Assembly: GCA_019058365.1 (NCBI GenBank)
Contig: JAHPZE010000035.1
Location: forward strand, 1-38,714
Source: Promethearchaeota archaeon
Lineage (GTDB): Archaea; Asgardarchaeota; Lokiarchaeia; Sigyniarchaeales; SOKP01
Length of the DNA stretch: 38,714 bases
Direction of reading: 5' to 3'
Shown here: positions 5,296 through 37,521 of the stretch, piece after piece
Position numbering within the stretch: position 1 is the stretch's first letter
How the letters are laid out: each line of letters opens with the position of its first letter
The notes under the pieces: generated by a model
Database searches by the model: none
What the model was told of the DNA's origin: nothing
What the model saw: the letters and a program-made list of their open reading frames with translations, nothing else
Translations under genes and position numbers: made by a program

Positions 5296-5476
5296 TATAA
5301 AATTAATAGAGAATTACTTATTTTCTTTTTTATCATTTTCTAAATTTCATTTTTTATTTCTGATTATATACACTAAAACATAATGAGTTAAAAGGCATAC
5401 ATGAATTAAATAGGAAACTTTGATAAAAGTTAACTAAAATAAAAAAAAGGGCTTAGATGTTTAAAAAATGGAAATT

Positions 5477-6035: not shown

Positions 6036-8276
6036 CTAAATCCCTCTTTCAAATTGTTTTAATTCAACTAAACACGAGTTTAAAGCAGAGGCACCACCAG
6101 GAGAATATGCATCTTTTGTTAAAGTATTAACACATCCACCTCGATCAATACCATCTTCATCCGGATCGTACCATGCACCTTCAAAAATAGAAATTACTCC
6201 AGGAATTATTCTTTCTGTCAACCATGCTTTGATTGTGAGTTTTCCTCTGTCATTGAATACTAAAATTTCATCTCCATCTTTTATTCCTCTCTCTTCAGCA
6301 TCAACAGGATTAATCCATGCTACATGTGGTTCAACTTCTTTTAGCCATTCAACCAAAAATAATTCTGAATGGACCCTATTTTTAGGATGTGGTGATATTA
6401 ATTGTAATGGGTACTTTTGGTTTAAAGGATCATAACGTCCTTCCCATCTCTCCATGTATTTAGGAATTGGAGGATTTTCAGGATCATTCAAATCCATAAT
6501 CCTTTGAGAAAAGATCTCAATCTTACCTGAAGGAGTATTAAATGGTTTGTTTTCAATATCGTTAATTTGTTCTTTAAATGCAACATATGGTTCTTCGAGT
6601 TTAAGACGATGTATTCCTTCTTGCCTAAATCTATTGATATCTCTTATATTTTTTCTTGTATCTTCTCGTAATTTTATTAAAAATCTTAAAGCTTTTTTCT
6701 CATCCGGGTATTTTTCAAATTCTTCCAACCCAAGTTTGTCTGCTAATTCTTCAGCAATCCTTAAATCAGATTTACACTCTCCAATAGGGTCAATTACCTG
6801 GTTTGCGCAGACAAAATATGGTCCAGAGGGCCAAGGTCTTACTAAATCGTTTTTTTCGGCTATACTTGTTACAGGTAGAATTATATCAGCATATCTAGCT
6901 GTCGGTGTAAGCCATAAATCTGCTATAACCATATATTCGAGTTTTTTTAAGGCTTCAGCAGACTTATTAGCATTTCCCAATTGGTTTAAAAAATTATTGT
7001 TTACAAACCATGCAAATTTCACATCAAAAGGATATCCACCCTCTTTACCCTTTAATATAGCATCAAAAATTTTATTTGTATGACATCTTGCCTGAAATCT
7101 AAGTTGTAAATCTAAAGATCCTCGAACTGATTTCAATCCTGTTTCAACTGGATTTCTATAAGGCGGAGATATCCTAGAAGCAAAAAACATATGACCATAA
7201 GGAATCCCCATTAATCCTCCAGCAGCACTTCCTCCATGTTTGCCCACATTTCCGGTCATTACTGTTAATGTCATAGCACATCTATTATATAGTTCTCCTA
7301 CAGCACTTCGAGCAGGACCTTGACAATCCATTAAAGCAGCAGGTTTTATTGCTGCATACTCTCGAGCAAGATTAGAAATTATTTCTGCAGGTACAGAAGT
7401 AATTTTCTCTGCCCATTCAGGTGTTTTAAGTATTCCATCCTCTTTGCCCATAACATAATCTTTGAATTTCTCAAATCCTATAGTATATTTATCTAAAAAT
7501 TCCCGATCATAAAGACCATCATCGATCATAACATAAGCCATAGCAATCATCATTGCAGTATCAGTTCCAGGTATAATTGGGATCCATTGATCTGCTAATA
7601 CTACTGCAGAATCTGTATATCTAGGGTCAATGCAAATTATTTTTATCCCCCTTTCTTTAGCTTTAATTAAATTAAATATTGTGTCTGAACCAGAGATCAT
7701 TCTAGCAGGATCCCAACCCCACATAATGATCAATTTAGAATTTAATAAATCAGTACGACTATGTCCAACAAAAGGGGAAGTGTATTGAGTCTGGGTTGCA
7801 TATACTGCTCCTTCAGAAGAGACGTTACCATAATGAGTGGAATATCCCCCAAATTGAGTCAATAGTCTCATCATCGCAAACATCCCATCATGGTAAGCTC
7901 CTTGATAAGCTCCACCAGTGACCAAAAAAATACTTGAATTTCCATACTTTTCTTTAACTTCTTTAAGTTTTTCGGCAAGTTCAGTTAATGCTTCATCCCA
8001 TGAGATACGTTTAAATTTACCAGATCCTTTTGGACCGTCTCTCTTTAATGGATATTTTAAACGCTTTGGATGATATACATATTGTCTAAGAGCTCTGCAT
8101 CTTAAACATGTTCGAAGTTGTTCGTCCTTTTGTTCATAATCGTCTCCCTCTACTCTAATAATCCTCCCATCTTTAATATGAAGCTTAAGAGGGCATCTTC
8201 CTCCGCAATCGAAAGTAGATGTTGTGCGAATAATTTTAATATCTTGATCATTTGTATTCTTTTCTTGATTTTGCAT
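6036..8276 (-). CDS. DmsA-like molybdopterin (Mo/W-bisPGD) oxidoreductase catalytic subunit, no Tat signal (paralog 1)
   Basis: DCGGRC, RLKYPLKR, RISWDEA, IDPRYTDS, PGTDTA, PKT-like KTPEWAE, TPTARYADIILP, TPSGKIEI and the C-terminal GAWY..D.GGCVN domain. Confidence 0.88.
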   Translation of the reverse strand: MQNQEKNTNDQDIKIIRTTSTFDCGGRCPLKLHIKDGRIIRVEGDDYEQKDEQLRTCLRCRALRQYVYHPKRLKYPLKRDGPKGSGKFKRISWDEALTELAEKLKEVKEKYGNSSIFLVTGGAYQGAYHDGMFAMMRLLTQFGGYSTHYGNVSSEGAVYATQTQYTSPFVGHSRTDLLNSKLIIMWGWDPARMISGSDTIFNLIKAKERGIKIICIDPRYTDSAVVLADQWIPIIPGTDTAMMIAMAYVMIDDGLYDREFLDKYTIGFEKFKDYVMGKEDGILKTPEWAEKITSVPAEIISNLAREYAAIKPAALMDCQGPARSAVGELYNRCAMTLTVMTGNVGKHGGSAAGGLMGIPYGHMFFASRISPPYRNPVETGLKSVRGSLDLQLRFQARCHTNKIFDAILKGKEGGYPFDVKFAWFVNNNFLNQLGNANKSAEALKKLEYMVIADLWLTPTARYADIILPVTSIAEKNDLVRPWPSGPYFVCANQVIDPIGECKSDLRIAEELADKLGLEEFEKYPDEKKALRFLIKLREDTRKNIRDINRFRQEGIHRLKLEEPYVAFKEQINDIENKPFNTPSGKIEIFSQRIMDLNDPENPPIPKYMERWEGRYDPLNQKYPLQLISPHPKNRVHSELFLVEWLKEVEPHVAWINPVDAEERGIKDGDEILVFNDRGKLTIKAWLTERIIPGVISIFEGAWYDPDEDGIDRGGCVNTLTKDAYSPGGASALNSCLVELKQFERGI

Positions 8277-8560
8277 CAAATCTTCTCACTAAAAATTTAT
8301 CAAATTTAATTATTAAGAGCTAAAATAATAATAATTATTCTTCCCCTTCTACCCTTATAATATTTATTGGTTAAAAATTTCCCCTTTTGAAATGGCAGCT
8401 TCTCTTTTGTTTAGTAGATCTCTCATCAATTCCGATTCAAATCGTTAAATTAACTGTTAAAGATTTTATGGTTTCCAATTATTAGAAATTTTCTTTAAAA
8501 TCCTCGAACCGTAATTCTTATAGAAGATCTCATTACTTATAATAGAGTATTCTTTAAAAA

Positions 8561-9250
8561 TTATGAATTTAATAATTTTTCTATATTTTCTAATAAAAAA
8601 TTACGAAATTCTTCCCTATTAAAATCAGCTTTTCCAAATTGTAAGAGTTCGCTAGCATAATCTTCTTTATATTTTGGATCTTGTTCAACTTTTCTCATAT
8701 GTCGTTCTACCATTGCAGATCCTAAAACTAAACTGTATGTAAAGAAAGTTAGCAATCCAGCATTCGAATAATTAATCTCTCCTTTTTCAATTGCATCTTG
8801 GATCACTTTAGCTGTACCTATGAGATAATTAAATTCACGATATTCTTTTTCAAATGGTCCTATCTTGTTAGAAGGAGGAGATTCTCTTAGATGCATCATA
8901 GCAAAAGCCGCAAAATCGTTTTCAGCAAATACTAAAAAGTTATTAAAAATTTTCATTAAAAGATCTTTAGTAGAACCCTTATGTTCTTTAATTATTTTTT
9001 TAGTTTGTTCTCGATATTGCGCATAAAACTTGTTTCGGATAGCAATCCATAATTCTCTTTTACTTTCTACATAGTTATACAGATTATTTTGATTCATACC
9101 AAGAATTTTAGCTAAACCCCGTAGACTGAATCCATCTTTACCTTTTTCTAAAAATAATTCTTTTCCTGCTTCTAAAATTTTCTCAAATTGAGCTGCTTTC
9201 TTTTCAGGGGACCTACTTCGAGTTTGCTTTTTAGTTGAATTATTACTCAT
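8561..9250 (-). CDS. TetR/AcrR family transcriptional regulator (paralog 1)
   Basis: ILEAGKELFLEKG..FSLRGLAKILGM..NLYNYVESKRELW HTH. ATG at 9250; the ORF track extends to 9277. Confidence 0.9.
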   Translation of the reverse strand: MSNNSTKKQTRSRSPEKKAAQFEKILEAGKELFLEKGKDGFSLRGLAKILGMNQNNLYNYVESKRELWIAIRNKFYAQYREQTKKIIKEHKGSTKDLLMKIFNNFLVFAENDFAAFAMMHLRESPPSNKIGPFEKEYREFNYLIGTAKVIQDAIEKGEINYSNAGLLTFFTYSLVLGSAMVERHMRKVEQDPKYKEDYASELLQFGKADFNREEFRNFLLENIEKLLNS

Positions 9251-9347
9251 TTTTTTTTCCGTTGATTTCTTTATCAAAACTTTATTTCAATATTTCCTTA
9301 TAGATTTAACTCAAAACTTCTCTATTCCTAATTAAGTAAAGCTACTT

Positions 9348-9368
9348 TAAATATAATATGTATATTGA
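9348..9368. promoter_or_regulatory. Candidate operator palindrome TAAATATAA-TAT-GTATATTGA (possible TetR autoregulation)
   Basis: 2 mismatches to consensus; lies upstream of tetR1. Confidence 0.5.
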
Positions 9369-9390
9369 GGGAAAAAAAGGGGATCAAATT

Positions 9391-9417
9391 AAAAAAAAAA
9401 ATAACACAAAATGTGTT
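9391..9417 (-). terminator. Putative terminator of the hbd-nmo2 transcript
   Basis: Hairpin AACACA-3nt-TGTGTT (9403-9417) followed on the minus strand by about 11 T. Confidence 0.45.
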
Positions 9418-9454
9418 TTGAATAATTCAAAGATAATTTAAATATACAAATTTG

Positions 9455-10495
9455 TTATTTTAACATATTATAATTGTTTTTAATCGCAGATTCTGCTTCC
9501 TTCATTATTCTTTGAATAATATCATTAACATCATCAATGCTATCAATTATTCCAATTGATTGCCCTAGTAATACAGCACCTGTTTTAATATCTCCATTAT
9601 AGACCCTATCATAAGCACCTAAATCCTTCACTCTTTGCTCAGGAGATATAGATTGCTCGTATTCTATCATTTCTTCTTTAGAACTGGGTGCTGGATGTGA
9701 TAGCGCGTATTCATTTTTATATAAGCGAATTGGTCCAAATGATCCAGTGTAAAGCCCAGTATCTTGTGGTTTCCCTGGTGGAACTAAAGCCTTATACTTT
9801 TCATGAAATTCACTCTGTTGTGAAGCGATAAATCTTGAACCCATAGCTATAGCTCCTGCTCCGAGTGAGAGTGCCGCTGCCAACGCTTCACCTGTGGCAA
9901 ATCCTCCACATGCGATTTTAGGTAAGTCAGGAAATGCTTTATTTATTTGCTGTAATAATACAAGAGTTGAAACTCTTTCATAAGATTGATGGCCACCTCC
10001 TTCAGTTCCAGTAACTACTATACCATCTACACCCGAATCTACACATTTTTGAGCAAGCCATACTGCAGGTGCTACATGAAAGTGTTTAACTTCCGAATTT
10101 TCTCTTAATTCTTGAAAGTATTTAGATTTTGGTAGAAATCTTGAAGAACCTGCAGAAGTAAGCCAATATTTACACTGATCCCTCATTTTCGGATTTTTCA
10201 TAACTATTTGTGGTACTTTTCTTGCCATCTCTCGAACTCCTGGATTATTACGAGATGTAAGGATGTTAAGTCCAAAGGGTTTATCTGTGTGTTCAATCAT
10301 ATATTCCAAGCTTGCAAGATGTTCCTTGACGGGGTCCGTTCCCACTATATTAACATTTGATAAAACACCTAAACCACCCGCTTCACATACTGCAAGAGCT
10401 AAATCTCTTGTAAAAAAAGGACCCATTGGTGCACTGAATATAGGATATTTAATCCCAAACATTTTCGTTATATTAGTTTCTATCATTTTATTCAT
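9455..10495 (-). CDS. Nitronate monooxygenase / FabK-like family protein (paralog 2)
   Basis: APMGP, EAGGLG, GTEGGGHQSYE, IACGGFATG, MGSRF and GAVLLGQSIG; long blocks are shared with 84..1136. Confidence 0.85.
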   Translation of the reverse strand: MNKMIETNITKMFGIKYPIFSAPMGPFFTRDLALAVCEAGGLGVLSNVNIVGTDPVKEHLASLEYMIEHTDKPFGLNILTSRNNPGVREMARKVPQIVMKNPKMRDQCKYWLTSAGSSRFLPKSKYFQELRENSEVKHFHVAPAVWLAQKCVDSGVDGIVVTGTEGGGHQSYERVSTLVLLQQINKAFPDLPKIACGGFATGEALAAALSLGAGAIAMGSRFIASQQSEFHEKYKALVPPGKPQDTGLYTGSFGPIRLYKNEYALSHPAPSSKEEMIEYEQSISPEQRVKDLGAYDRVYNGDIKTGAVLLGQSIGIIDSIDDVNDIIQRIMKEAESAIKNNYNMLK

Positions 10496-10554
10496 TCTCT
10501 TGAATTTTTAAAAATATTGATAATTAAAAAATTAAAAAAAAATAGAGATGTAAA

Positions 10555-11730
10555 TTATATCATATCTACAAATTTACCTGACTTAAATAAATCACATGGT
10601 TTTAGGTAGGGTTTACCTAAATTTTCAGCTGTTTCTTCCAAAAGCTTAGCTAAACGTTCATAGTTCTTAGTAGCATATTCCATAGGACCTTTAAAATTCA
10701 TACCTGCTAATATTGCATCATCGATCACCTTCCAGCTTGATACAACGCCCTCTTCTAGAATTCTGCATCCCTCATTAGCATTGATGGCATTAAAAAGATC
10801 TTGATTCACAAGTCCTGCTTTTTTTGAGAGATCAGGTTGTGGTCTCCCCTTTGACCAATCATAAAACCCTTGTCCAGTTTTTTTACCCAGAGTCCCCTTT
10901 TCTATTTGCATTCTTAAAACTTTTCCAGGTTTAAAATCAGGAGAAAGTTTTTCGCTATAATAAAATCCTCCATTATATGATATATCCCGCCCTGTAAAAT
11001 CTGCTAATGTTAATGAAGACATTGGAGTATTTGGTCCAGTTAGATCAGCATCTACTTGTTCCCAAGGAATACCCTTTTCGTATGCTTGATCAATAATATG
11101 ATTAAAATAAATGCCCCTTGGAGCAAGTACCCGATTAACTATAAATCCGGGTCGATCCTTCTGTACACGAGCAATGTATCTTTCTCCTCTCAAGCATGGC
11201 AATGATTTCGCAACTTCAACACCTATATCCATAGATTCTTCTGAGCTCTTATCACCTTTAATAACTTCAATAAGACGCATTAATGGAGCTGGATTAAAAA
11301 AATGCATTCCTATTACATTTTCAGGTTTACTACATTTCTCCGCGATCTCAGTAATGCTCATAGTAGAAGTGTTCGAAGCAAATATACATTTTTCTGGAGA
11401 GTTTTCAATAACATCCTTACATACTTTTTGTTTTATATCTAATTTTTCTACAACTGCTTCAATAACTAAATCTGCATCCTTAACTGCATCAATGATATCA
11501 CTCGACGTTTTTAGTCTTGCTAAATAATCTGCAGCACTTGATCCTTCAGGTAAACTACCTTTTGATTCTAACTTCTCAAATCCTGTTTTTATGTAATCCA
11601 AACCTTTTTCAATAATTTGATCACTTATGTCAACTGCTGTAACATTATAACCTGCCATTAAATTTACTTGAGCAATTCCTTTACCCATATCGCCAAAACC
11701 AAGCATAACAATATGTTTCACATTCACCAT
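10555..11730 (-). CDS. 3-hydroxyacyl-CoA dehydrogenase (NAD-binding domain plus duplicated C-terminal domain)
   Basis: GFGDMG Rossmann motif, IEAVVE, ASNTSTM, GMHFFNP..LIE (His-Glu dyad), PGFIVNR and LGKKTGQGFYDW. Confidence 0.9.
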   Translation of the reverse strand: MVNVKHIVMLGFGDMGKGIAQVNLMAGYNVTAVDISDQIIEKGLDYIKTGFEKLESKGSLPEGSSAADYLARLKTSSDIIDAVKDADLVIEAVVEKLDIKQKVCKDVIENSPEKCIFASNTSTMSITEIAEKCSKPENVIGMHFFNPAPLMRLIEVIKGDKSSEESMDIGVEVAKSLPCLRGERYIARVQKDRPGFIVNRVLAPRGIYFNHIIDQAYEKGIPWEQVDADLTGPNTPMSSLTLADFTGRDISYNGGFYYSEKLSPDFKPGKVLRMQIEKGTLGKKTGQGFYDWSKGRPQPDLSKKAGLVNQDLFNAINANEGCRILEEGVVSSWKVIDDAILAGMNFKGPMEYATKNYERLAKLLEETAENLGKPYLKPCDLFKSGKFVDMI

Positions 11731-25348: not shown

Positions 25349-26293
25349 ATAGAAGCAACAACCCAAGGATTAATCTTCAAAATAGAGAGAATGGCTACTG
25401 ACGATGGCCCTGGTGTTCGGACAACAATTTTTTTTAATAATTGTCTTTTAAATTGCGTTTGGTGTCACAATCCAGAATCAATTCCAAAAAAACCTCAGCT
25501 TTATTGGACAGAACGTAAATGTATTGAATGCAATAGCTGTGTTGATGCTTGTCGAGAGGATATTTTAACTTTTGAAGATGATGGATTGCACATTAATAGA
25601 GAGCGATGTACTAGTTGTGGAGAATGTGTGGAAGCATGTCCTAGCACGGCATTAAGCATGTATGGAAAATGGTGGGATGTAGAAGAGCTTTTTCACGAGA
25701 TAGAAAAAGAAAAATTATTCTTTGATAAAGCAAAAGGAGGTATAACCGTTTCCGGTGGCGAACCTACTTTACAACCGGATTTTCTCTTGAAAATCTTGAA
25801 ATTATGCAAGGAAAATAGTATTTCTACTGCTTTAGATACTTGCGGAATTTCAAGTAAAAAAGTCTATCAAGATTTATTACCCTACCTTGATATAGTGTTG
25901 TTAGACATCAAAGAGATTGATCCTGAAAAGCATAAAGAATTCACAGGCGTTTCAAATAAAATAATTTTAGAAAATGCTAAATGCATGTCTAGATACGTAA
26001 AGCAAAATAAGAAAATTATGTGGATAAGGACACCTTTAATTCCAAACTATACTGCCACGAAAGAGAATGTTCAAGGAATTGGAGAATTCATTGTAAATGA
26101 ATTAGATAACATCCCGGATAAATGGGATTTATTGAGCTTCAATAAACTCTGTGATATTAAATATACACAATTAGGTAAATCATGGTCTTTAAAAGATGAG
26201 CCATTAATGACAAAGGAGGAGATGGAAAATTTTGTTGAAATTGCTAAAGGAACAGGGGTTAAGAACGTTAAGTGGTCAGGTTTAACTCGATAA
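25349..26293 (+). CDS. Glycyl-radical enzyme activating protein (radical SAM with 2x[4Fe-4S] ferredoxin insert)
   Basis: DGPGVRT, CLLNCVWCHNPE, CIECNSCVDAC/CTSCGECVEACP, SGGEP and LDTCG. The conserved GLIFKIER lies upstream of the first ATG (25391), implying a start near ATA at 25349. Confidence 0.9.
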   Translation: MEATTQGLIFKIERMATDDGPGVRTTIFFNNCLLNCVWCHNPESIPKKPQLYWTERKCIECNSCVDACREDILTFEDDGLHINRERCTSCGECVEACPSTALSMYGKWWDVEELFHEIEKEKLFFDKAKGGITVSGGEPTLQPDFLLKILKLCKENSISTALDTCGISSKKVYQDLLPYLDIVLLDIKEIDPEKHKEFTGVSNKIILENAKCMSRYVKQNKKIMWIRTPLIPNYTATKENVQGIGEFIVNELDNIPDKWDLLSFNKLCDIKYTQLGKSWSLKDEPLMTKEEMENFVEIAKGTGVKNVKWSGLTR

Positions 26294-26436: not shown

Positions 26437-28884
26437 TTATAATTCATTAAAAACTATTCTTGCTATAATATCGTCCTGAAGCTCTTTTGTTAAATCTATA
26501 AAACGCGCAGAGTAACCTGTCACTTTAACAGATAAGTCGGGATAATTTTCTGGATGGGCTTGTGCGTCTCTAAGGGTTTCTGAGCTAATTGGATTAATTT
26601 GAAGCTCTCGACCTCCTAAATCTAAATACGTTTCTACTATAGAAGTAAATTGATCGAGTCCTTCGTCAGTTTGTAGTATACTCGGATTAAGTCTAATATT
26701 AAATGATGCGCCATTTGTTAAATGAGGATCAGCTGTCGCATAAGCTACTGATTTGAGTGTCATGGTAAGACCATTCTTTTCAGTACCATTTGAAGGAGAG
26801 ATACCGTTCGCCACGGGTTCACCTTTTAATCTTCCATCTGCAGTTGCACCTAGTGATTTACCCTCTATAACCTGAGTTCCAGAAGACACAAGGCAATTAT
26901 GATATATACCATCACCGTCTCTCGCTTTATAGTTTCTTGTGATATCGCATAAGGTAGTTGCTACCCATCTTCCAAGTTCGTCCGTTCTTTCATCACCATT
27001 ACCATATTTGGGTGCTTTATTTCGTAATTTTTCCCTAAGTTCTTCAGCTCCCTTGAAATTATTATTCATATGGTTAACTAATTCTTCCATGGTTAGTAAT
27101 TTCTCTTCAAATACTGCCCAACGTATTGCTGCTAAGGAATCTACCACAGTACCAAGCCCTTGTGAGCCCATTGGGTTATTATTATATTTCGCTCCATTTC
27201 GAGTTGCATCCATTCCGCTTTCGAGACATCCTTCTATTGAAGAAGAAAGCAACGGAGAAGGTAAATACTTAGCAAATGTTTTATCTTTTATCTCAGCTTT
27301 TCTCACACAGAGATCTATTGCAAATTTAAGTTGGTCTACAAAAGCTTTTTTCACATCTTCAAAAGTTTTAAAAGTACTTACTGAGGGTGTTTTTGCTCCA
27401 ACGGATTCTTTTCCTGAAAGAATCGTACGCCCTTCATTTAACGCCATATTAAGAAGAATTGAAATCTGGACGGCATTACCTGCAGTATAAGAGAAGTCGT
27501 TCCCTGTACCATGTGGTTCTACACAACCGACGATTGAATAATCTCGGGCATCTTCTAACGAATATCCCGTATCGTGAAGTTGTGGCACTAAAATTTCATC
27601 ATTATGTATGCCCATTCCGGCTGTATATTTAAAAGCTTCAAGAGTTCTTTTCAAAAAATCACGTGGACTCTTGGAAGAAATTCTTATTGATAATGTATTC
27701 AATAAGCTTTTTACATTTGCAATAGCTTCGAGGAACATATAAGAAACATCATTCGTGGCATCATTTCCATCTTTATCTAGTCCCCCAATAGTTATGTTGT
27801 TCTGTCCAGCTATAACGACAGAAGAAAGTTTGACTAAATATTCCTCAATTGCTTCTACAGCTTCCTCATAACTAATTCGACCCTCTGCTAAATCGGCTTC
27901 GTAAAATGGGTAAAGGTATTGGTCTACTCGTCCTTGAGAAAATATGTTTCCTTCACCATAACTCATTTCCATAACGACATTGGTCATCCAGACTGATTGA
28001 AGTGCTTCCATAAAACTCCTGGGAGGATAAGCTGGCACTCTTCGAGTTCTTTCTGCTATATCTAAAAACTCTGCCTTTCTTGTTTCTGAAGCAGTTTCTG
28101 CCATTTCCATTGCGAGATCAGCGTATCGATTGGAATAATCACAGACGGCGTTTGCAGCTACTATGACTGATTCATAAAAGTCCTTGCGTTGGTCAAATTT
28201 TTCATCTGTTTCCTTAAGATTTGCAAGCCCCTCTTTCGCTATCTCTTCGATACCTCTAAATCCCATTTTGAGTACTCGTCTATAGCCTGGAACGACATGT
28301 CCTTGACCCATAGCACCTGCAAACATATCAGTACCGCTCCCAAAACTAACGAGGAGCATTGAGGGCAAAGCTCCCTTCGGTTCCTCATATAAGCCTGCCT
28401 CTTTATAGGCTTCTTCCTTTCGATCTGCTACTGTTCTTCCCTTCCAGAAGGGCAGAATCTCATTCCTCAACTCATCTTGTTCTTCTTCTGTTAAAGGAAC
28501 ATACCGGTTAATAAAAGATACTTTTGAAATAATCATATCTTTTACTTGTTTATTTATCGATTCGCTAACGACTAAACCTAAAAGTTTAGACCGCATTCCA
28601 CGTTCTATTTCAATTGGATCAGCTCTGATTTTACTAGATTTTACGCCTACAAGAAGCTCGTCTTCATCAATTCTGATTGGAAGACACCGTAAAAATTCCT
28701 CCAATGCTTTCACATTTTTCATGCAGGGCGGAGCATCTTCCATTTGTTTGTATATTCTTGTATAACACCGAGCTCGCTCAAGATCAAGTTCTCTTGGCAT
28801 AGAAAGCATTCTATCTCTAATCTTTCTAACTCGCTCTGAAGGTATTCCTTGAAGAGGAGTCATTCTCAAATCTTGAACTACCAT
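26437..28884 (-). CDS. Glycyl radical enzyme (PFL superfamily, eliminase-like, substrate unknown)
   Basis: ERARCYT, GRVDQYL, Cys loop SIVGCVEP, PKYGN, ATADGR and Gly loop VKVTGYSA near the C-terminus. Confidence 0.92.
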   Translation of the reverse strand: MVVQDLRMTPLQGIPSERVRKIRDRMLSMPRELDLERARCYTRIYKQMEDAPPCMKNVKALEEFLRCLPIRIDEDELLVGVKSSKIRADPIEIERGMRSKLLGLVVSESINKQVKDMIISKVSFINRYVPLTEEEQDELRNEILPFWKGRTVADRKEEAYKEAGLYEEPKGALPSMLLVSFGSGTDMFAGAMGQGHVVPGYRRVLKMGFRGIEEIAKEGLANLKETDEKFDQRKDFYESVIVAANAVCDYSNRYADLAMEMAETASETRKAEFLDIAERTRRVPAYPPRSFMEALQSVWMTNVVMEMSYGEGNIFSQGRVDQYLYPFYEADLAEGRISYEEAVEAIEEYLVKLSSVVIAGQNNITIGGLDKDGNDATNDVSYMFLEAIANVKSLLNTLSIRISSKSPRDFLKRTLEAFKYTAGMGIHNDEILVPQLHDTGYSLEDARDYSIVGCVEPHGTGNDFSYTAGNAVQISILLNMALNEGRTILSGKESVGAKTPSVSTFKTFEDVKKAFVDQLKFAIDLCVRKAEIKDKTFAKYLPSPLLSSSIEGCLESGMDATRNGAKYNNNPMGSQGLGTVVDSLAAIRWAVFEEKLLTMEELVNHMNNNFKGAEELREKLRNKAPKYGNGDERTDELGRWVATTLCDITRNYKARDGDGIYHNCLVSSGTQVIEGKSLGATADGRLKGEPVANGISPSNGTEKNGLTMTLKSVAYATADPHLTNGASFNIRLNPSILQTDEGLDQFTSIVETYLDLGGRELQINPISSETLRDAQAHPENYPDLSVKVTGYSARFIDLTKELQDDIIARIVFNEL

Positions 28885-29045: not shown

Positions 29046-30356
29046 CTACTTAGAGGTTGGTGGATTATTACACCATATAAAGTGACCTTCGTCGATTTTA
29101 ATCATATGAGGAATTTTTAATTCACAATCTTTTGTACGAGCATCAGAAGTACAGCGTGGATTATAAGTACATCCAGGTGGTGGTGCTATAGGGCTTGGGA
29201 CTTCACCTTTGATAACAAATTTGATCTCTTGATTGTAAGGATCTATTTCAGAACGTGAGGCGAGGAGTGCCTTAGTATAGGGATGAGTTGGATTTGAAAA
29301 AATTTGTTCCTTACTTCCAACCTCTACAAATTTACCAAGATACATAACAGCTACGCGATCAGCAACATGGGAGACAACAGCTAAATTGTGGGTAATAAAC
29401 AAAAATCCATAGCCATATGTTTCTTGCAAATCTTTAAGCAGATTAAGAATTTGTGCTTGAACTGATACATCAAGGGCAGAGGTAGGTTCATCTAATATTA
29501 TCAACTCTGGATTGCAAGCTAATGCTCTAGCTATAATAATTCTTTGCTTTTGTCCACCTGAAAATTCGTGAGGATAACGATCCATATGTTCCCGCTTTAA
29601 TGACACTTGATTTAACAATTCTAAAACCCTTTTTCTTAACTCTAATTCATTAGTTATGCCAAGTAAATTTTTGAGAGGATCCGCTATAATATCAACAATT
29701 TTTTTACGAGGGTTCAAGGAAGCATCTGGATCTTGGAAAATCATTTGAATCTTTTGTCTTAAATAGCATGAATATTTGGGAGGAATTGTCATATCTTGGA
29801 AAAGTATTTCACCTTCTGTTTTATCTACTAAACCTAGTATTACTTTTGCAATAGTAGTTTTTCCACACCCACTTTCTCCCACTAATCCAAGGGTTTCTCC
29901 AAACTTTACATCAAATGAAACTCCATCAACTGCTTTAACAGCCCCTATTTTTCTTTTTAAAATTCCTCCTATAAGTGGATAATATACTTTAAGATTTTTA
30001 ACTTCAAGTAGATTCTTAATTCTTTCAAGATCGCTAATTTGACAAAATTTTTTGAGCCTAACTACTTTATATGTAATATACTTAATAGCAAGACTAGTAA
30101 TCACTGCTATTAAACAGTATGTAATAAAAAATAGCCAAAAGTTTCCCACTATAACTTCTGGTAGAGGAATAAAGCTAAAAAGAATACAAATAAGTGATGA
30201 AATTATATATAGAGGGAATTTTACTCTAATTAATTGGGATCGAGGATCCCAATTTATGATAAAAAATGAAATAACAAAAGTTAGACAAAACATAGATAAA
30301 AGGGATAAGACTAACGCTAATCCTAAAATGGTTGAAAAATCAATAAATTGAAACAT
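29046..30356 (-). CDS. oppF: Oligopeptide/dipeptide ABC ATPase (OppF/DppF) with N-terminal ~3-TM domain
   Basis: KAVDGVSF, GESGCGKT, FQDP, FSGGQKQ, IILDEP and C-terminal HPYT...CTYNPRC. The first ~95 aa are hydrophobic. SD GAGGAG precedes ATG 30356. Confidence 0.88.
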   Translation of the reverse strand: MFQFIDFSTILGLALVLSLLSMFCLTFVISFFIINWDPRSQLIRVKFPLYIISSLICILFSFIPLPEVIVGNFWLFFITYCLIAVITSLAIKYITYKVVRLKKFCQISDLERIKNLLEVKNLKVYYPLIGGILKRKIGAVKAVDGVSFDVKFGETLGLVGESGCGKTTIAKVILGLVDKTEGEILFQDMTIPPKYSCYLRQKIQMIFQDPDASLNPRKKIVDIIADPLKNLLGITNELELRKRVLELLNQVSLKREHMDRYPHEFSGGQKQRIIIARALACNPELIILDEPTSALDVSVQAQILNLLKDLQETYGYGFLFITHNLAVVSHVADRVAVMYLGKFVEVGSKEQIFSNPTHPYTKALLASRSEIDPYNQEIKFVIKGEVPSPIAPPPGCTYNPRCTSDARTKDCELKIPHMIKIDEGHFIWCNNPPTSK

Positions 30357-30455
30357 TATAACATCTCCTCTATTTTATATTTATATTCACTAATTTTTAT
30401 TAAGAATGCCAAGATAATGACATATCCTCAATTTTCGTTTACTTAAATAATTTAA

Positions 30456-32333
30456 TTAAATTTCTCCTTCTACTTTCTTTATAATAATTTCTGCTAAATG
30501 TTTATATTCTGGATTGTATAGATGACATGCTACAAAATAATCCTTATCAACCTCATTTTGTGTTGGAACTATTGAATTACAAGGCTCGAAACAATATTCG
30601 CATCTAGGATGAAATCTACATCCTGAAGGAGGATAAATTAGATTTGGAACCATTCCTGATATAACTTCAAGCCGTTTTTGACTTTTTCCAATAACAGGAA
30701 CAGAAGCTATAAGTCCTCTGGTATATGGATGATATGGGCTAATTAATAATTTCTTTATATCTCCATATTCAACAATAGATCCACTGTACATTACAGCAAC
30801 ACGATCACACATTTTGGAGATGAGACCTAAATCGTGAGTGATATATAATATACTAGTATTGTATTTCTTACGAAGTTCTTTCATAAGTTTAAGAATTTGA
30901 TTTTGTATCGTAACATCTAACGCAGTAGTTGGTTCATCAGCAATTAGTAATTTTGGTCTACATGCCAAAGCCATCGCAATTTGAACTCTTTGTCGCATAC
31001 CACCACTTAGTTCATGAGGATATCTATCAAAAATTACTTCAGGAAAGGGTATATTTAAATCTTTCAAAAGGCCTATACTCCATTCTTGAGCAATGCTATA
31101 TATACCTTTATCAGGAAATTTAGAAGTCTCGACAAGTAGTTCATTTTCCATATGCAGTAAAAATACTTCAGATATTTGCTTACCTACTTTAAAAACTGGG
31201 TTAAGCGAACTAAGTGGATCTTGAAATATCATAGTGATATCTTTTCCACGATATTTTAGTATTTCAAATTCAGATTTTAAAGCTAGATCTTCTCCACTGA
31301 AAACAATTTTTCCTTTTTCTCTTTTTCCTGGAGGACGAATTAGTTGAACAATAGATAATGCGGTAACAGATTTACCACAACCGGTTTCGCCTACAAGACC
31401 AAGAACTTCACCTTCGTAAACTTTAAAAGAAATATCTTCTACTGCACGAACAATACCCTCTTCCGTATAAAAATATGTAGTGAGATCTTTCACATCAAGG
31501 ATAATGTGATTGCTGCTTAATTTAGAGTCTTTAAAAGATTGATCTTTCACTATTTCTAATGCTTTTTGAACTTTTAACTTACTTCTTGCTTTTTCAACTG
31601 GCATAAATTTCTTTTTCAACGATATATAATATATTAAACCATAAAGACCACTAACTACACCAAATAATATACGAATGTCTTGAGTATATATTTTTACTCC
31701 AAATAATCTATTCAAATATAATTCAAAGATTATTAATTGTATTGACCAAATTCCAAATGAGATAAGTCCACCAGTAAAGATGGAATACTTTAAAGGTATT
31801 TTAGGAATTCGTTTCTCAATTGGACGAATTTTATTAATTAAAATTGTAATAAGAATATCAATCCCCACTGTAAAACCTGCCCATATAAATCCAAGGTAAA
31901 AAATGTCAATTAATACTGGTTCTTCTCCTTGAAGTCTTTCAAGTCCTAAGAGAGGAATCGAAATAAATATTATCGCAATTATCCAAGTTATTGCAATAAA
32001 AATTTTAAATATTTTAATAAATTGCCCATCCTTTTCTACTAATTTCCTATATAGAAAATAAAAGATTGTAGTTATAATTGCGAATGATACAGCATTATTA
32101 TTGAAAGCTAAAAATATAGAATTGAAAAACCATAAAGTTTCAAAAAGAGATTTAACGCCAAAGATAATTCCTAATAAAATAATACATATTATTCCTGACT
32201 TTCTCCTAAATAATTTCTTTGAGACCTGCTGATCCTCAGGAATTTGATTATTGATAATATTTGAAATTAAATATAAGACAAACACAATAATAATTGAGTC
32301 AACTAATGCTTTTCCGTAATTTAATCCAAACAC
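30456..32333 (-). CDS. oppD: Oligopeptide/dipeptide ABC ATPase (OppD/DppD) with N-terminal ~7-TM domain
   Basis: GETGCGKS, FQDP, LSGGMRQ, LIADEPT and HPYT...CRFHPRC. The first ~240 aa are multi-pass hydrophobic. GTG start. Confidence 0.88.
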   Translation of the reverse strand: MFGLNYGKALVDSIIIVFVLYLISNIINNQIPEDQQVSKKLFRRKSGIICIILLGIIFGVKSLFETLWFFNSIFLAFNNNAVSFAIITTIFYFLYRKLVEKDGQFIKIFKIFIAITWIIAIIFISIPLLGLERLQGEEPVLIDIFYLGFIWAGFTVGIDILITILINKIRPIEKRIPKIPLKYSIFTGGLISFGIWSIQLIIFELYLNRLFGVKIYTQDIRILFGVVSGLYGLIYYISLKKKFMPVEKARSKLKVQKALEIVKDQSFKDSKLSSNHIILDVKDLTTYFYTEEGIVRAVEDISFKVYEGEVLGLVGETGCGKSVTALSIVQLIRPPGKREKGKIVFSGEDLALKSEFEILKYRGKDITMIFQDPLSSLNPVFKVGKQISEVFLLHMENELLVETSKFPDKGIYSIAQEWSIGLLKDLNIPFPEVIFDRYPHELSGGMRQRVQIAMALACRPKLLIADEPTTALDVTIQNQILKLMKELRKKYNTSILYITHDLGLISKMCDRVAVMYSGSIVEYGDIKKLLISPYHPYTRGLIASVPVIGKSQKRLEVISGMVPNLIYPPSGCRFHPRCEYCFEPCNSIVPTQNEVDKDYFVACHLYNPEYKHLAEIIIKKVEGEI

Positions 32334-32373
32334 GGTTTGATATATTGTATTTAAAACTTTTTATCCCTCATAT

Positions 32374-33390
32374 TTATAATTTTAATCGTGGATCTAATGC
32401 ATCTCGAAATCCATCTCCAAGGAGTATATATCCTATGGCAGCAATTCCAATAAATATTCCTGGCCAAACAGCAGCACTGATATTACTATATCTACCTCGG
32501 GCCCATAAAATATCGAGCCCCCAACTGGCTACAGTATTGTCTGAAAATCCTACAAATGCAAGACCTGCTAAACCTATTATTGCTATAGCAGCTCCTCCAA
32601 AAAAAGATACTAACATAGGGGATATTGCATTTGGTAATATATGTTTAAACATAACAATAAACTTCCGCGCACCACCTACTTTCGCTGCTTGAATGTATTC
32701 AAGTTGTTTTACTTGGAATACAAGTGATCGCATGAACCTAATATTATATGGTATAAAAAGAACTCCGTAAATAATAAGAGTGGTTAATAAATCTGTACCA
32801 AGCATAGGAGTAACTATAACAATAAGTATCAATGTTGGAAAAGCATAGAATAAGTCTACAATGCGCATCATGATATAGTCAATAACTCCACCAAAATAAG
32901 CAGAAAAAATGCCTAAAACAAGACCCCCACCAATGGATATTGTTACGGGGATTAATGACGATAAAATTGTAGTTCTAGCCCCCCAAATAATTCTAGCTAA
33001 AACATCATATCCATTATATGTTGTCCCAAACGGATGGCTAGCTGATGGAGGAGCAAAAACCTTTGGATTAGGCGGAACATGTGGTATCACTAAGTCTTGT
33101 AATGGATAGATAGTAAACCAAGGTGCAAATATAGCTAATATAGAAATAAATAAAATCATTAGTAGACCTGTTATTGTTAGAGGTTTAACAAGGTGTCGAA
33201 ACAATCTCCTTTTAGATTTGATTTTTTCAATCTCAAATTCTTGCGCTGAAAATTCAGGGTCTCGCCAACCAGGAATTAAATAAAACTTTAAGAAGCGAAG
33301 AAATTTCATTTTTCTTAATGATTTCGATGAACTCTGCTCTTCTACATTTTCTTTTTTTAAAACTTTTTCTATAATTTCCATCAACCTCAT
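32374..33390 (-). CDS. oppC: Oligopeptide/dipeptide ABC permease (OppC/DppC)
   Basis: PPSASHPFGT..GYDVLARIIWGAR and the EAA loop EYIQAAKVGGA..KHILPN; ends GDGFRDALDPR. Confidence 0.92.
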   Translation of the reverse strand: MRLMEIIEKVLKKENVEEQSSSKSLRKMKFLRFLKFYLIPGWRDPEFSAQEFEIEKIKSKRRLFRHLVKPLTITGLLMILFISILAIFAPWFTIYPLQDLVIPHVPPNPKVFAPPSASHPFGTTYNGYDVLARIIWGARTTILSSLIPVTISIGGGLVLGIFSAYFGGVIDYIMMRIVDLFYAFPTLILIVIVTPMLGTDLLTTLIIYGVLFIPYNIRFMRSLVFQVKQLEYIQAAKVGGARKFIVMFKHILPNAISPMLVSFFGGAAIAIIGLAGLAFVGFSDNTVASWGLDILWARGRYSNISAAVWPGIFIGIAAIGYILLGDGFRDALDPRLKL

Positions 33391-33393
33391 CTC

Positions 33394-34458
33394 TCAAAAA
33401 ATAATTCGTGGGTCTATAATCGTATAAAGTATATCTGCTACTAAAGTTCCTGAGAGGATTATTATGGTAGCAAATACTAGGAGCCCAAGAGTAACTAGGT
33501 AATCTCCTGTTAATATAGAAATAACCATGTAATAACCAAAACCTTTATAATTAAACACTATTTCAACAAAAAAAGAGCCTAATAATGCTGTTGCGGTACC
33601 CCCAACGATTAGATTACTGACAGGCAATAATGCGTTGCGAATAGCGTGTTTATTTATAACATCTTTTTCTAATACGCCTTTAGCTCGAGCAGTTCTAATA
33701 TAATCTTGATTTAAAACGTCCAACATGCTGGATCGCGTTTGTCTTGTCATACTTGCTAATGAAACAAAAGTAAGACAAATAGCAGGTATAATTAGGTGTA
33801 CAATTGTGTCCCACAAATAAATTTGATTATTAGCTATTATGCTATCGATTATTCGAAATCCTGTTATAGATCTGGGTGCTGTTAATCCAGGTGAATTTGC
33901 GAAAAAAGCGGGTATATCGAAGCCTTGATATGTAAAATTACTCAAATAATAACCAAAAAAGCGTTGGAGCATGTCAGCAATCCAAAAGACAGGGAATCCT
34001 GCCCCTAAGATTGCAACAATTCTAACTCCTACATCTTTTATTTTATCCCTATGTTTTGCAGAAGCTATTCCAAGTTTTACTGCGATAATAGGACTTAATA
34101 TTATTGGGATTATCATTAATTCTATTGTTCTTGGAAATATTTCCGAAATTAAATCAATTACAGGTTTATCCCGTATGATTATATAAGAACTACCCCAATT
34201 TCCGGTAAAAAAATTCTTAAAATATATGGCAAGTTGAATATACCAAGGATCATGGTATCCAATTCTCCGTAATTCTGCTTCAATAATATCAGGATCGAGT
34301 GTATTACCCAATCTACCGGCAACAGGGTTAACTAAATTTTGTCGGACCATTAAATACGATAAGAGCCAAGAAATAGTTAGAACAAGCAACAACATCGGAA
34401 TCATCATTAATATCCGCTTGATGATATATTTTATCATATTTTTTGGTTGTTCAGCCAT
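33394..34458 (-). CDS. oppB: Oligopeptide/dipeptide ABC permease (OppB/DppB)
   Basis: YIIKRIL, GNWGSS, RSSMLDVLNQDYIRTARAKG, HAIRNAL and DILYTIIDPR. Confidence 0.92.
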   Translation of the reverse strand: MAEQPKNMIKYIIKRILMMIPMLLLVLTISWLLSYLMVRQNLVNPVAGRLGNTLDPDIIEAELRRIGYHDPWYIQLAIYFKNFFTGNWGSSYIIIRDKPVIDLISEIFPRTIELMIIPIILSPIIAVKLGIASAKHRDKIKDVGVRIVAILGAGFPVFWIADMLQRFFGYYLSNFTYQGFDIPAFFANSPGLTAPRSITGFRIIDSIIANNQIYLWDTIVHLIIPAICLTFVSLASMTRQTRSSMLDVLNQDYIRTARAKGVLEKDVINKHAIRNALLPVSNLIVGGTATALLGSFFVEIVFNYKGFGYYMVISILTGDYLVTLGLLVFATIIILSGTLVADILYTIIDPRIIF

Positions 34459-34499
34459 TTTCTTCCCTTTTTTCAAAGAATAGTGTCTTTATAATTCTC

Positions 34500-35036
34500 T
34501 TATTCTATATTTCTTTTTGATTTAATTAATTGTTTGACTTTCATACCACTTATAGCACCAGATAGTGTGGTTGCAATTAAGATAGAAATATGTAAATAAC
34601 CCTTCCAATTTCCAAATTGTAATATAATTGGCTCTATGCTAAAACCATACATGATTGCATATAAAATAAAAGCTTCAATAATTATAAAAGGAACAAGCCA
34701 GATTGACGCTTTTATTCCATAGTGAAAAATTGATTCCTTATACGTTAATAAAAAACAAGTAACAAATACTAATATTAAAGGCAAGAAGAATGTATCTACA
34801 TATACTTCAAATGTCCAAAATAACACCGTTCTTTCCATTTCAGTAAAACTTATCCAAGTTTGTTCAGTAAAAGAGATCCACTCATCAATCATAACGATAT
34901 TAGCAACAAGGCCATAATATCCTAGTAATACAATCGTGTATGCAATAAAAACACTACCTTGGCGCCCAAGATCGATCTTTATATTGCCTTTCTTGTTATT
35001 GTCACTTCTGTTTTGATTTTCCTCGTCTTGCAACAT
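34500..35036 (-). CDS. Hypothetical integral membrane protein (~4 TM), first gene of the opp operon
   Basis: Four hydrophobic segments; co-oriented with oppB and 41 bp upstream of its ATG. Confidence 0.75.
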   Translation of the reverse strand: MLQDEENQNRSDNNKKGNIKIDLGRQGSVFIAYTIVLLGYYGLVANIVMIDEWISFTEQTWISFTEMERTVLFWTFEVYVDTFFLPLILVFVTCFLLTYKESIFHYGIKASIWLVPFIIIEAFILYAIMYGFSIEPIILQFGNWKGYLHISILIATTLSGAISGMKVKQLIKSKRNIE

Positions 35037-35223: not shown

Positions 35224-37521
35224 ATGAGAAAATGGTCAAAAAGTTTAATTCTTTCTTTATTTATTATTTCTATGTTATTTCCACTTATACCTTTCAGTGT
35301 CAAAGCTCAAAGTACGATACCCACGTTTACTGTAGGAGCTTGCGGACCCGCTCCCATAGGTAGTTGGGATGGTATTAGTTTTGCAGCTACTACTGGCGAT
35401 TATTTTAGGTATAATGCTCTTGAAGGATTATTTGAATTACCATATGGTGCGGAATCCGGAGATTATGATAATTTAGTACCAGTACTTGCAACCAGTTGGA
35501 CAATACATGCCCGACCAGATGAAATGAACGCTAAAGGTTTTATGAATTACGGTGGAGTTGATTATATGGATGTCGTTCTCAGAGAAAACGTTAAGTTTCA
35601 CGATGGCTCGGATTTTAACGCCACAGTTTGCAAATGGAATCTTGATAGGCTCATGTACACCTTGGGAAATATCAATTTTTGTATAGGTGGTAGTACTGAA
35701 GTTGATTCTGCTGTGACCACTAATAGACCGATTTATTGGTTGAGCGTAAGTGATTGGCTTCCTTATGCAACTGCCTCTTGGAATGTAGCAAATTTTCGAG
35801 GACCATATTATGGAGGAGGTTATTATCTTAATGAATATCCTGGATTCGGATATTCCAGTGCAGCTGATTCCCCGTATGGTTTAAATCGTTTCCCTCGATT
35901 TACAAATATAACCATACTTGATAACAAGCAATCAGGAGGAACAGTTAGAGTCTATTTTAATGATTGGGGCACCGGTCCACAATATTTATCGAATGCGTGG
36001 GTAAAATTTATCTCCATGGATTCTTATAAGGACTATTTTGATGTTCCAATCATGGGATATGGAGATGTTCCAAAGTTTCCCCAAAATAACGCGACATCAC
36101 CTTTCCCTGGACATTTAATTGGTACAGGGCCCTATATGTTTGATAATTTCACATTAGATCAAGGTACTATGACAAGATTTGATGATTGGTGGAACGCTTC
36201 AGCTCAACAGGCTAAAGGGTGGCATATGCTTCCAAAGGTGGCAGTAGTTACGTTTAGTCATGACACAACAGGATATGCTGCAAGGACAACAGCATTGGTG
36301 ACAGGTGATATTGACTTTGCTTATGATCATTCCTGGGAACCGCTTGGTTATAGTGATATAGCTACCGCTTCTAACTTGGACTATATAGATATGGGCCAGG
36401 AAAATTACGGGGAAGTTATCGTTTTAAATTGCGTTGATGAGACATATTTGCGTTATTGGTATGATATAGGCTTTAACTTGTCTCAACCCGTAGGGTCACC
36501 ATATACATACCCAATATTATCCTCCACTAATATTAAAGAAGTAAATGGAACTTTAAAACCAACTAATGGAGTTGATCGCGCCTTTAGGAAAGCGCTTTCT
36601 TACGCATTTGATTATGATACATATCTGGCACTATATAATGGTCGGGTAGAGCGTTCTGGGGGTTTAGTGGCATCTACTCACGAATACTATGACCCATCTG
36701 TACCTTTACCTACTAGAGATCTCACGATAGCACGACAAACCTTACTAGATGATCCAGTCTGGGGAGCAGTTTGTCTAGCTCATGGTTTAACTAGCACAAC
36801 AGACGACTGGAACACTGTAGCAACTACTAATCCTATTTACACATTTGAAGATCATTATGATGATGCCCATCTTGAATCTTATCAATTGTTGATATCTGCT
36901 CTTGAGGATATTGGGTGTGCTATAGCTGCTACTAAAGATACAAGTGGTACTTATCCAGCAATATTAGCCGGTACACTTCCTTTATTATCCTGTGATGGAT
37001 TTGCAATTAAACCTTATCACAGCCGTATTGATGATCTTGGATTCATTCAGGCATATTATCAAAGCACTGGCATTATTGAACGAACTCCAACGGATGCTAC
37101 CTTCCCATTTCAAAATTATACTAGATACATAGCAGATTACAATTCCTATCCTTATGCATTCCCATATAAAGCGGGATCGAATATGGGTTTTACTTACAAT
37201 GCTACATGTGATAATCTGATTGCAAAACTATGGTTCCAAAACTCTACTGGAAAGCAACAATACTATAGCGAATTGGCAGATTGGGCTCAGAATTATCAAT
37301 ATCCCATGCTCTATTTAGGAAATGATTTAACAGGCCGCGCAGTAGATAAAGATTGGGACACCGCTTGGCATTGGATTTTAGTACAGCATTTTGACTTAGT
37401 GAAATATAGTCCTACTGCCCCAGGAATTCCAGGATTTTCAGTTGGATTAGTTTTATTTGCTTCAGTAATAGCATCTATCGGAATTGCGTATATTCTCATG
37501 AAAAAAAAGAAAATACTATAG
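35224..37521 (+). CDS. oppA: ABC substrate-binding protein family 5 (OppA/DppA-like) with signal peptide and IPGF-TM-basic (Loki-CTERM-like) anchor
   Basis: Signal peptide ending VKA, LVPVLATSW, LRENVKFHDGSDFNA, IGTGPY and FRKALSYAFD. C-terminus PGIPGF-TM-MKKKK. Confidence 0.85.
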   Translation: MRKWSKSLILSLFIISMLFPLIPFSVKAQSTIPTFTVGACGPAPIGSWDGISFAATTGDYFRYNALEGLFELPYGAESGDYDNLVPVLATSWTIHARPDEMNAKGFMNYGGVDYMDVVLRENVKFHDGSDFNATVCKWNLDRLMYTLGNINFCIGGSTEVDSAVTTNRPIYWLSVSDWLPYATASWNVANFRGPYYGGGYYLNEYPGFGYSSAADSPYGLNRFPRFTNITILDNKQSGGTVRVYFNDWGTGPQYLSNAWVKFISMDSYKDYFDVPIMGYGDVPKFPQNNATSPFPGHLIGTGPYMFDNFTLDQGTMTRFDDWWNASAQQAKGWHMLPKVAVVTFSHDTTGYAARTTALVTGDIDFAYDHSWEPLGYSDIATASNLDYIDMGQENYGEVIVLNCVDETYLRYWYDIGFNLSQPVGSPYTYPILSSTNIKEVNGTLKPTNGVDRAFRKALSYAFDYDTYLALYNGRVERSGGLVASTHEYYDPSVPLPTRDLTIARQTLLDDPVWGAVCLAHGLTSTTDDWNTVATTNPIYTFEDHYDDAHLESYQLLISALEDIGCAIAATKDTSGTYPAILAGTLPLLSCDGFAIKPYHSRIDDLGFIQAYYQSTGIIERTPTDATFPFQNYTRYIADYNSYPYAFPYKAGSNMGFTYNATCDNLIAKLWFQNSTGKQQYYSELADWAQNYQYPMLYLGNDLTGRAVDKDWDTAWHWILVQHFDLVKYSPTAPGIPGFSVGLVLFASVIASIGIAYILMKKKKIL

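Follow-up and report, generated by a model that had tools for sequence, protein, structure and literature searches.

The importer operon and its membrane-fused ATPases

The window analysed here, i.e. a whole stretch of 38,714 nucleotides (nt) from the metagenome-derived genome of a Promethearchaeota archaeon (contig JAHPZE010000035.1), carries on its minus strand a five-gene operon for an oligopeptide/dipeptide (Opp/Dpp) ATP-binding cassette (ABC) importer. According to the translations of the open reading frames (ORFs), it encodes, in this order, a membrane protein of 178 amino acids (aa), the permeases OppB and OppC, and the ATPases OppD and OppF. In textbook type I ABC importers the ATPases are soluble proteins that dock onto the permeases, whereas in this operon both ATPases start with a membrane domain of their own, while the permeases are complete.

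OppD (625 aa; 30456-32333, minus strand) is made up of an N-terminal domain with seven transmembrane (TM) helices (residues 1-245, 31599-32333, delimited by an AlphaFold2 (AF2) model and hydropathy), a cytoplasmic linker (residues 246-276, 31506-31598, from the full-length AF2 model), and a nucleotide-binding domain (NBD) with the oligo_HPY/Cys-rich C-terminal region (residues 277-625, 30456-31505). Pfam recognises ABC_tran (299-470) and oligo_HPY (521-585), and nothing on the N-terminal part. The ATPase motifs are intact in the translation (GETGCGKS, FQDP, LSGGMRQR, LLIADEPTTALD, ITHDL, and HPYT with the Cys tail). Since the chains of solved OppD/DppD proteins (8z21_C, 8z1v_C, 8j5q_D) only start to align, with their residue 3-18, at residue 277-278, OppD carries about 276 extra residues.

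OppF (436 aa; 29046-30356, minus strand) has a shorter N-terminal domain with three TM helices (residues 1-100, 30057-30356; helices at about 9-34, 47-65 and 68-92 by hydropathy), followed by the NBD and its oligo_HPY/Cys tail (29046-30056). Pfam matches are confined to ABC_tran (144-293) and oligo_HPY (344-404), with none on the N-terminal part, and because the NCBIfam models of the DppF/OppF type align from residue 112, about 110 residues are extra. Its motifs (GESGCGKT, FQDP, FSGGQKQR, LIILDEPTSALD, ITHNL, and HPYT with the Cys tail) are intact as well.

OppB (360 aa, 6 TM; 33394-34476, minus strand) matches BPD_transp_1 at 135-358, together with BPD_transp_1_N, and has the EAA-type loop DYIRTARAKGV; OppC (338 aa; 32374-33390, minus strand) matches BPD_transp_1 at 156-337, together with OppC_N, and has the loop EYIQAAKVGGA. 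The operon thus has the two full-length BPD_transp_1 permeases with EAA loops that mark the PepT family (Pfam, translations), and two ATPases in which ABC_tran, oligo_HPY and the catalytic motifs, namely Walker A and B, Q-loop, signature and H-switch, are all intact, as in PepT ATPases. It departs from the usual (though not strictly required) state of this family, in which the ATPases are soluble, peripheral and about 330 aa long, in that they measure 625 and 436 aa and contain 7 and 3 TM helices.

The initial annotation of this stretch had described an OppD with about seven and an OppF with about three N-terminal helices, each in frame with an intact NBD, a strong Shine-Dalgarno sequence at the TM start of OppF, and complete OppB and OppC next to the extra domains. 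On all of these points it was right: ORF, hydropathy, AF2 and Pfam agree for OppD, as do ORF, hydropathy and motifs for OppF, a GAGGAG lies 8 nt upstream of the OppF ATG, and both permeases match BPD_transp_1 over its full length.

Conservation, assembly and selection

At 30% GC, with a stop frequency of about 0.08 per codon, an open frame of about 250 codons such as that preceding the OppD NBD has a chance of roughly 1e-9 of arising at random. In a word-indexed search, 92 database proteins matched OppD residues 1-265 with 34-100% identity. Their names are those of Asgard metagenome-assembled genomes, mostly of Promethearchaeota, and all except truncated records also carry ABC_tran and oligo_HPY, at a total length of 604-660 aa (three are 745-1008 aa). 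Fused relatives of OppF number 12, with identities of 61-100%. Among 20 related loci that were retrieved from other genomes for context (with labels such as L030), a TM-bearing OppD is present in all 20 and a TM-bearing OppF in all 19 that retain oppF, the one without it (L038) ending at its contig edge. Separate genes for membrane domain and NBD would speak against a genuine fusion, and the two are joined in every OppD and OppF of these loci. Free-standing genes for the 7-TM domain were also looked for in the database, where the short matches turned out to be truncated or frameshifted fragments.

Contigs from four other metagenome runs (X2 to X5), which belong to four different studies, cover the same region. 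The OppD junction is crossed without gaps by contigs of X3 (30980-32400), X4 (30826-31705) and X2 (31189-31778), and the OppF junction, likewise without gaps, by single contigs of X2 (29885-30143) and X5 (29806-30105), with X3 and X4 covering it by overlapping contigs. The only indels in these contigs are intergenic, at 30390 and 30450.

The added domains of both OppD and OppF are under selection. Across five orthologues (Nei-Gojobori), the ratio of non-synonymous to synonymous substitution rates (dN/dS) is 0.25-0.30 (about 0.27) for the OppD membrane domain, compared to 0.10-0.18 for the OppD NBD; the OppF membrane domain, at 0.33-0.73, is under looser constraint. Met244, an internal methionine from which an NBD-only OppD could start, is not conserved in the alignment. 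Because of the conservation, the gap-free contigs over the junctions, the dN/dS values and the lack of free-standing genes, the possibilities of an artefact, a pseudogene or a wrongly assigned start are excluded for practical purposes, and it is confirmed that the fusion is real, conserved and selected in this Asgard lineage.

Structure and topology of the OppD membrane domain

The AF2 model of OppD residues 1-267, based on a 31-sequence alignment, is a seven-helix bundle (predicted local distance difference test (pLDDT) 84, predicted TM-score (pTM) 0.72) with helices at 6-30, 39-70, 80-99, 104-128, 143-169, 178-210 and 220-266, which agrees with the approximately seven helices expected from hydropathy. 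The number of lysines plus arginines per loop is 2.8, 3.7, 4.1 and 7.3 for the loops predicted to lie inside and 0.2, 0.2, 1.0 and 2.5 for those outside; this alternation fits an N-out/C-in topology, with the NBD in the cytoplasm. In the full-length model, which has a pLDDT of 70 overall and of below 50 in the C-terminal third of the NBD, TM7 continues as one helix (220-271) that ends five residues before the first NBD strand. The modelled cytoplasmic loops between the helices count about 4-8 residues only, too few for an intracellular coupling domain of the exporter kind.

In the alignments, the invariant or near-invariant residues of the domain are W117, F123, L129, D143, G148, W151, N167, W196, Q199, L200, E204, Q218, D219, R221 and Y231; of these, W117, D143, G148, W151, N167, W196, Q199, E204, Q218 and D219 are invariant in the 31-sequence alignment, and R221 is conserved too. 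Given the N-out topology, the conserved polar and aromatic residues lie mostly in the outer half of TM4-7. The linker is charged and variable, being 43-57% identical at distances where the membrane domain is 67-77% identical, and its length is almost constant among orthologues.

The TM1-loop-TM2 segment (9-66) matches TM5-loop-TM6 (147-204) with 94.6% probability (hhalign), from which it follows that the domain grew by duplication of a helix hairpin. Outside its own relatives, no likeness of significance was found. A Foldseek search of the N-terminal domain, in line with the fold comparison that the initial annotation had in mind, gave no PDB match at E <= 0.001; the best E-value was 0.28, with TM-scores of 0.2-0.28, and the top rows, all non-significant, were mostly 7-TM proteins of the G-protein-coupled receptor (GPCR) type. 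VIA-align against about 48,000 chains reached at best a Z of 8.1, on partial helical segments, a value that counts as noise where models are helical. On 31 N-terminal domains, Pfam at E <= 1 produced scattered chance matches only (the commonest being DUF5056, in 4 of 31) and no signal of PF00664, ABC2 or BPD_transp_1, while NCBIfam gave nothing on the N-terminal domains of either OppD or OppF. Of 1.84 billion cluster representatives searched with phmmer, only 38 proteins match the OppD domain, which is thus, as far as these sequence and fold comparisons reach, without a known family of homologues. Nor are the added domains detectably related within the operon: hhalign gives a probability of 0.1-1.3% for the OppD versus the OppF domain, and no similarity of either domain to the small 4-TM protein that leads the operon.

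Distribution and modular origin

A search of 400 genomes of the phylum, i.e. the survey of Asgard genomes for this architecture that had also been envisaged, found the OppD domain in 43 genomes, of which 40 belong to the 134 of its own family (the source genome not counted). Outside this family, it was found in one genome of a sister family and in one distant genome, there on a 4.8-kb contig. Up to five matches occur per genome, where one long OppD frame can yield two, and a profile search of the 400 genomes reached no further than the single-sequence search. A second family of this order contributes two genomes that have an OppD of 658-660 aa with about 6-7 TM helices, an OppF with 3 TM helices and the 4-TM protein. 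At the N-terminus, these OppD proteins carry remotely homologous domains (23% identity; hhalign 97.7%), which HMMER missed, so that the counts understate the age and, somewhat, the breadth of the design.

The added domains vary in size, with 7 versus 3 helices in the window and from 3 to about 10 in orthologues. The short OppF domain aligns with the final three helices of a 6-8-TM domain that is found in most OppF orthologues (hhalign 98.2%), and it is a remnant of that larger module. At the other end of the range are long forms of OppD, of 975-1062 aa and with about 14 TM helices (L033 6080-9022, L047 6079-9267, L048 5654-8680, L049 5801-8728), in which the complete 7-TM domain is joined by a second module of chimeric make-up. 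This module combines a copy of TM4-6 (98.1%) with a DIR motif and with a segment that resembles the long OppF domain in its N-terminal half (98.6%; both hhalign). In L047-L049 the OppF is about 585 aa long with 6-8 TM helices, and in L033 it is short.

Other irregular forms were seen at these and similar loci. A gene of the OppF type in L040 (4843-6852) is extended at its N-terminus by about 500 aa with about 10 TM helices, and its HPY tail is in a separate 104-aa ORF (4532-4846), for which a frameshift or a split gene is possible. OppB has a 4-TM N-terminal extension in L046 (5335-6843, 502 aa in total), without similarity to the 4-TM protein (hhalign), and a 2-TM insertion in L043 (10513-11808, 431 aa) and L045 (4910-6148, 412 aa). 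A 754-aa OppF in L055 (8540-10804) has about 320 extra residues at its C-terminus, an 821-aa OppD in L052 (6503-8968) has its Walker A motif at residue 54 and no TM helices, and in L047-L049 OppF is followed by a protein of 950-961 aa, for which a Pfam scan of the L047 copy gave no match.

Membrane modules have thus accreted repeatedly on these importers, namely as the hairpin repeat, the long OppD, the insertions and extensions of OppB, and a hairpin within the NBD of a paralogue (see below).

Remaining components of the locus

The operon is led by the small 4-TM membrane protein (178 aa; 34500-35036, minus strand), which has no match in Pfam or NCBIfam. With the leading protein of a second Opp locus in the same genome it shares 30% identity (E 1e-10). 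Recognisable homologues occur at 14 of the 20 related loci, as well as at Opp loci of which the ATPases lack N-terminal TM domains.

Divergently from the operon, a substrate-binding protein (SBP) of 765 aa is encoded on the plus strand (35224-37521), which its SBP_bac_5 match (E 2e-24, Pfam) places among the family 5/cluster C binding proteins. Hydropathy indicates an N-terminal signal or TM segment at 8-26 and a further TM segment at 740-758. The latter is part of a C-terminal anchor recognised by the NCBIfam model Loki-CTERM (residues 735-763), in which GIPGF is followed by the TM segment and KKKK, and this signal implies that the SBP would undergo archaeosortase-type processing and lipid anchoring.

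An antisense ORF of 132 aa (32294-32692, plus strand) overlaps oppC and recurs at unchanged length in L031 and L032. Most likely it arises as a side effect of conservation in the sense frame, the DNA being AT-rich.

The second Opp locus of the same genome (L005, contig 35: 300000-314000; ORFs 5288-5779, 7929-9191 and 9223-10641) is again led by the 4-TM protein homologue mentioned above. Its OppD (420 aa) contains an insert of about 90 aa that is rich in charged residues and without TM helices, and its OppF (472 aa) an insert of about 115 aa with a TM hairpin (at about 150-205), located between Walker A and the Q-loop. This OppF has therefore also gained membrane helices, but inside the NBD, whereas the ATPases of the window carry separate N-terminal domains. 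Most members of the genus to which the window belongs have a second locus of this type in their genomes, in which frames of the canonical length, about 330 aa, are seldom found.

On the OppF side, the operon is adjoined by a glycyl-radical enzyme of the PFL2/glycerol-dehydratase family (26437-28884, minus strand; Pfam PFL-like and Gly_radical), which is not a transporter subunit and which scores below every NCBIfam equivalog cut-off, and by a glycyl-radical activase (25391-26293, plus strand). Orthologues of the enzyme (68-96% identity) adjoin OppF in 10 of the 20 related loci, with a partial copy in an eleventh, and it is this conserved adjacency which suggests that the importer may feed the neighbouring glycyl-radical enzyme. 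Two copies of the enzyme are present in L041. The acyl-CoA genes of the neighbourhood are not conserved among the 20 loci, with only the closest relative (L030) keeping a hydratase-like ORF beside the SBP gene, and the suggestion of the initial annotation that the extra modules may handle lipidic substrates, in keeping with an acyl-CoA context, is therefore not borne out.

Comparison with known systems

The solved PepT systems, i.e. OppBCDF (8Z21) and DppBCDF (8Z1V) of E. coli and OppABCD (8J5Q) and DppABCD (8WD9) of M. tuberculosis, share with the window the family 5 SBP, the two BPD_transp_1 permeases with EAA loops and the NBDs with an oligo_HPY/Cys-rich region, which can be aligned from end to end with the NBDs of the window (E 1e-80 to 1e-105). 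Their ATPases, however, begin directly with the NBD and lack membrane segments altogether, whether they are single proteins (327-336 aa) or double-NBD fusions (548-612 aa). The window differs from them by the approximately 276 (OppD) and 110 (OppF) extra residues, with 7 and 3 TM helices, and by the fifth, small membrane protein at the head of the operon; the added membrane domains are absent from every solved Opp/Dpp system.

A membrane domain N-terminal to an NBD in one polypeptide is also what half-transporter ABC exporters (type IV) and fusions in the style of OppC-OppD have. Unlike in those proteins, the domains in the window show no ABC_membrane or BPD_transp_1 signal, have short loops, are not paired homologues, and occur next to separate, full permeases. 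An identification as a type IV half-transporter was rejected because of the absence of PF00664, the short modelled loops, and the absence of exporters from the listed top 50 matches of both fold searches; an OppC-OppD type permease-ATPase fusion was rejected because the N-terminal domain gives no BPD_transp_1 match and complete OppB and OppC are encoded separately.

The supplementary table of PMC7997004 lists, as TC 3.A.1.5.45 in the Transporter Classification, a system of Lokiarchaeum sp. GC14_75 (KKK40959-KKK40963) with 2, 6, 6, 14 and 8 transmembrane segments (TMS), while the main text of that paper reports the presence of PepT homologues and neither mentions nor interprets membrane-fused ATPases. 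By its TMS pattern and organism, this entry resembles the long variant of L047-L049 (and, for OppD, of L033), compared to which the window holds a shorter form (7 + 3 TM versus 14 + 8 TMS). Apart from this TCDB-linked table, a search of the literature found no description of Opp/Dpp ATPases with membrane domains of their own. The earlier claim of an undescribed architecture goes too far, since TC 3.A.1.5.45 is tabulated with 14 and 8 TMS: the design is apparently catalogued once, in its long form, and is uncharacterised. The same table contains a Heimdall PepT system (TC 3.A.1.5.46, OLS22413-OLS22415...) with components of 13 and 15 TMS, which may be another non-canonical Asgard Opp architecture.

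Role of the added membrane domains

With regard to function, the reading that we favour, and in which we have middling confidence, is that of a functional type I ABC importer of the PepT family (Opp/Dpp, TC 3.A.1.5), i.e. a lineage-specific variant in which the added domains serve as an accessory anchor or scaffold beside OppBC. Through the helical domain at its N-terminus, each NBD is covalently tied to the membrane for good, and in the model TM7 of OppD runs on as a cytoplasmic stalk of about 25 residues into strand 1 of the NBD. The added domains and the 4-TM protein would flank the OppB/OppC core and hold the ATPases at the complex, while the substrate would still take the route from SBP to OppBC, with the ordinary coupling between EAA loops and NBDs driving its passage. 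We infer a location beside OppBC and a non-translocating, accessory and possibly regulatory role. That the two domains are unlikely to be a translocation pair is suggested by their being unrelated and unequal, by their variable helix number, the fast evolution of the OppF domain, the short loops, and the lack of a transporter signal in Pfam.

Several points weigh against the anchor or scaffold. A plain anchor needs no invariant set of residues such as E65, D143, N167, Q199, E204, Q218-D219-R221 and W117/W151/W196, and the location of the invariant residues, mostly in the outer half of TM4-7, hints at a specific site for a ligand or partner. Furthermore, the model of the NBD is mediocre (pLDDT 70, and below 50 in the C-terminal third), which makes the geometry of the stalk tentative. 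Canonical Opp systems function without such an anchor, and its selective benefit is thus unexplained.

The main rival reading, which is possible though somewhat unlikely, is that the 7-TM domain of OppD is a receptor-like sensor or gate. Its outer polar cluster would bind an external ligand, the lipid-anchored SBP or an ion, and the state on the outside would be signalled through the TM7-stalk helix to the ATPase and switch ATP turnover, so that the domain would compare with the regulatory domains at the C-terminus of MetN or ModC, except for being embedded in the membrane. Invariant residues at the outer ends of TM2 and TM4-7 (E65, D143, G148, W151, W196, Q199, E204, Q218, D219 and R221) suit a sensor better than a passive anchor, and the OppD domain is far better conserved than that of OppF. 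In the model, TM7 is one continuous helix that extends into the cytoplasm as far as the NBD, and the length of the linker is nearly constant in orthologues; its sequence, however, is poorly conserved. On the other hand, no ligand or partner is known for the OppD domain, no receptor fold was matched significantly (the GPCR/rhodopsin rows of Foldseek have E 0.3-1 and TM-scores of 0.2-0.28), and the clustering of the conserved residues is read from the topology, not from coordinates. Taken to its full extent, this idea would have the OppD domain as an outward-facing 7-TM sensor of a new fold, wired to the importer ATPase via a rigid helical stalk. With the OppF module and the 4-TM protein included, the importer would count about 26 TM helices and be gated by a receptor, which we consider quite doubtful.

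It is very unlikely that the two NBD-fused domains pair as TM domains of their own, in the way of half-transporter exporters or flippases, so that one ATPase dimer would drive import through OppBC as well as a second path for export or lipid handling. The order of membrane domain and NBD is indeed that of exporter half-transporters, both added domains have 6-8 helices in many orthologues, and TM7 continues into a cytoplasmic helix like TM6 of type IV exporters. However, the OppF of the window has three helices only, the two domains are not homologous (hhalign), the modelled cytoplasmic loops of <= ~8 residues leave no coupling helices, no ABC_membrane or ABC-2 signal was found with Pfam, and no exporter is among the listed top 50 matches of either fold search (Foldseek, VIA-align); moreover, the grooves of the NBDs are presumably filled by the EAA loops of the intact OppB and OppC. 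The probability that mis-assembly, a lost stop, a wrong start or untranslated extensions mimic the fusion, as the origin of the window in a metagenome-assembled genome with an estimated contamination of 6.6% might suggest, is negligible, considering that more than 90 proteins from many assemblies, with identities of 34-93%, and every related locus keep the fusion, that contigs of other metagenomes cross the junctions without indels, and that there is purifying selection, no conserved internal start, and nothing but fragments among the short matches.

Implications

A clade of Asgard archaea thus keeps both ATPases of an importer as integral membrane proteins, under purifying selection and in addition to full permeases. 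This raises the question of what a membrane domain adds to an importer NBD, for which anchoring or control of stoichiometry, binding of a partner, and gating are the candidates. For addressing it, the orphan 7-TM domain offers a model of high confidence and well-defined invariant residues as targets for mutation, while the conserved linkage to the glycyl-radical enzyme provides a handle on the substrate. If the OppD domain did turn out to be a receptor that gates the importer, this would be a mode of regulation that type I ABC importers are not known to have. Beyond this locus, the repeated accretion of helices on parts of the Opp system suggests a lineage-wide trend in the evolution of Asgard membrane proteins.

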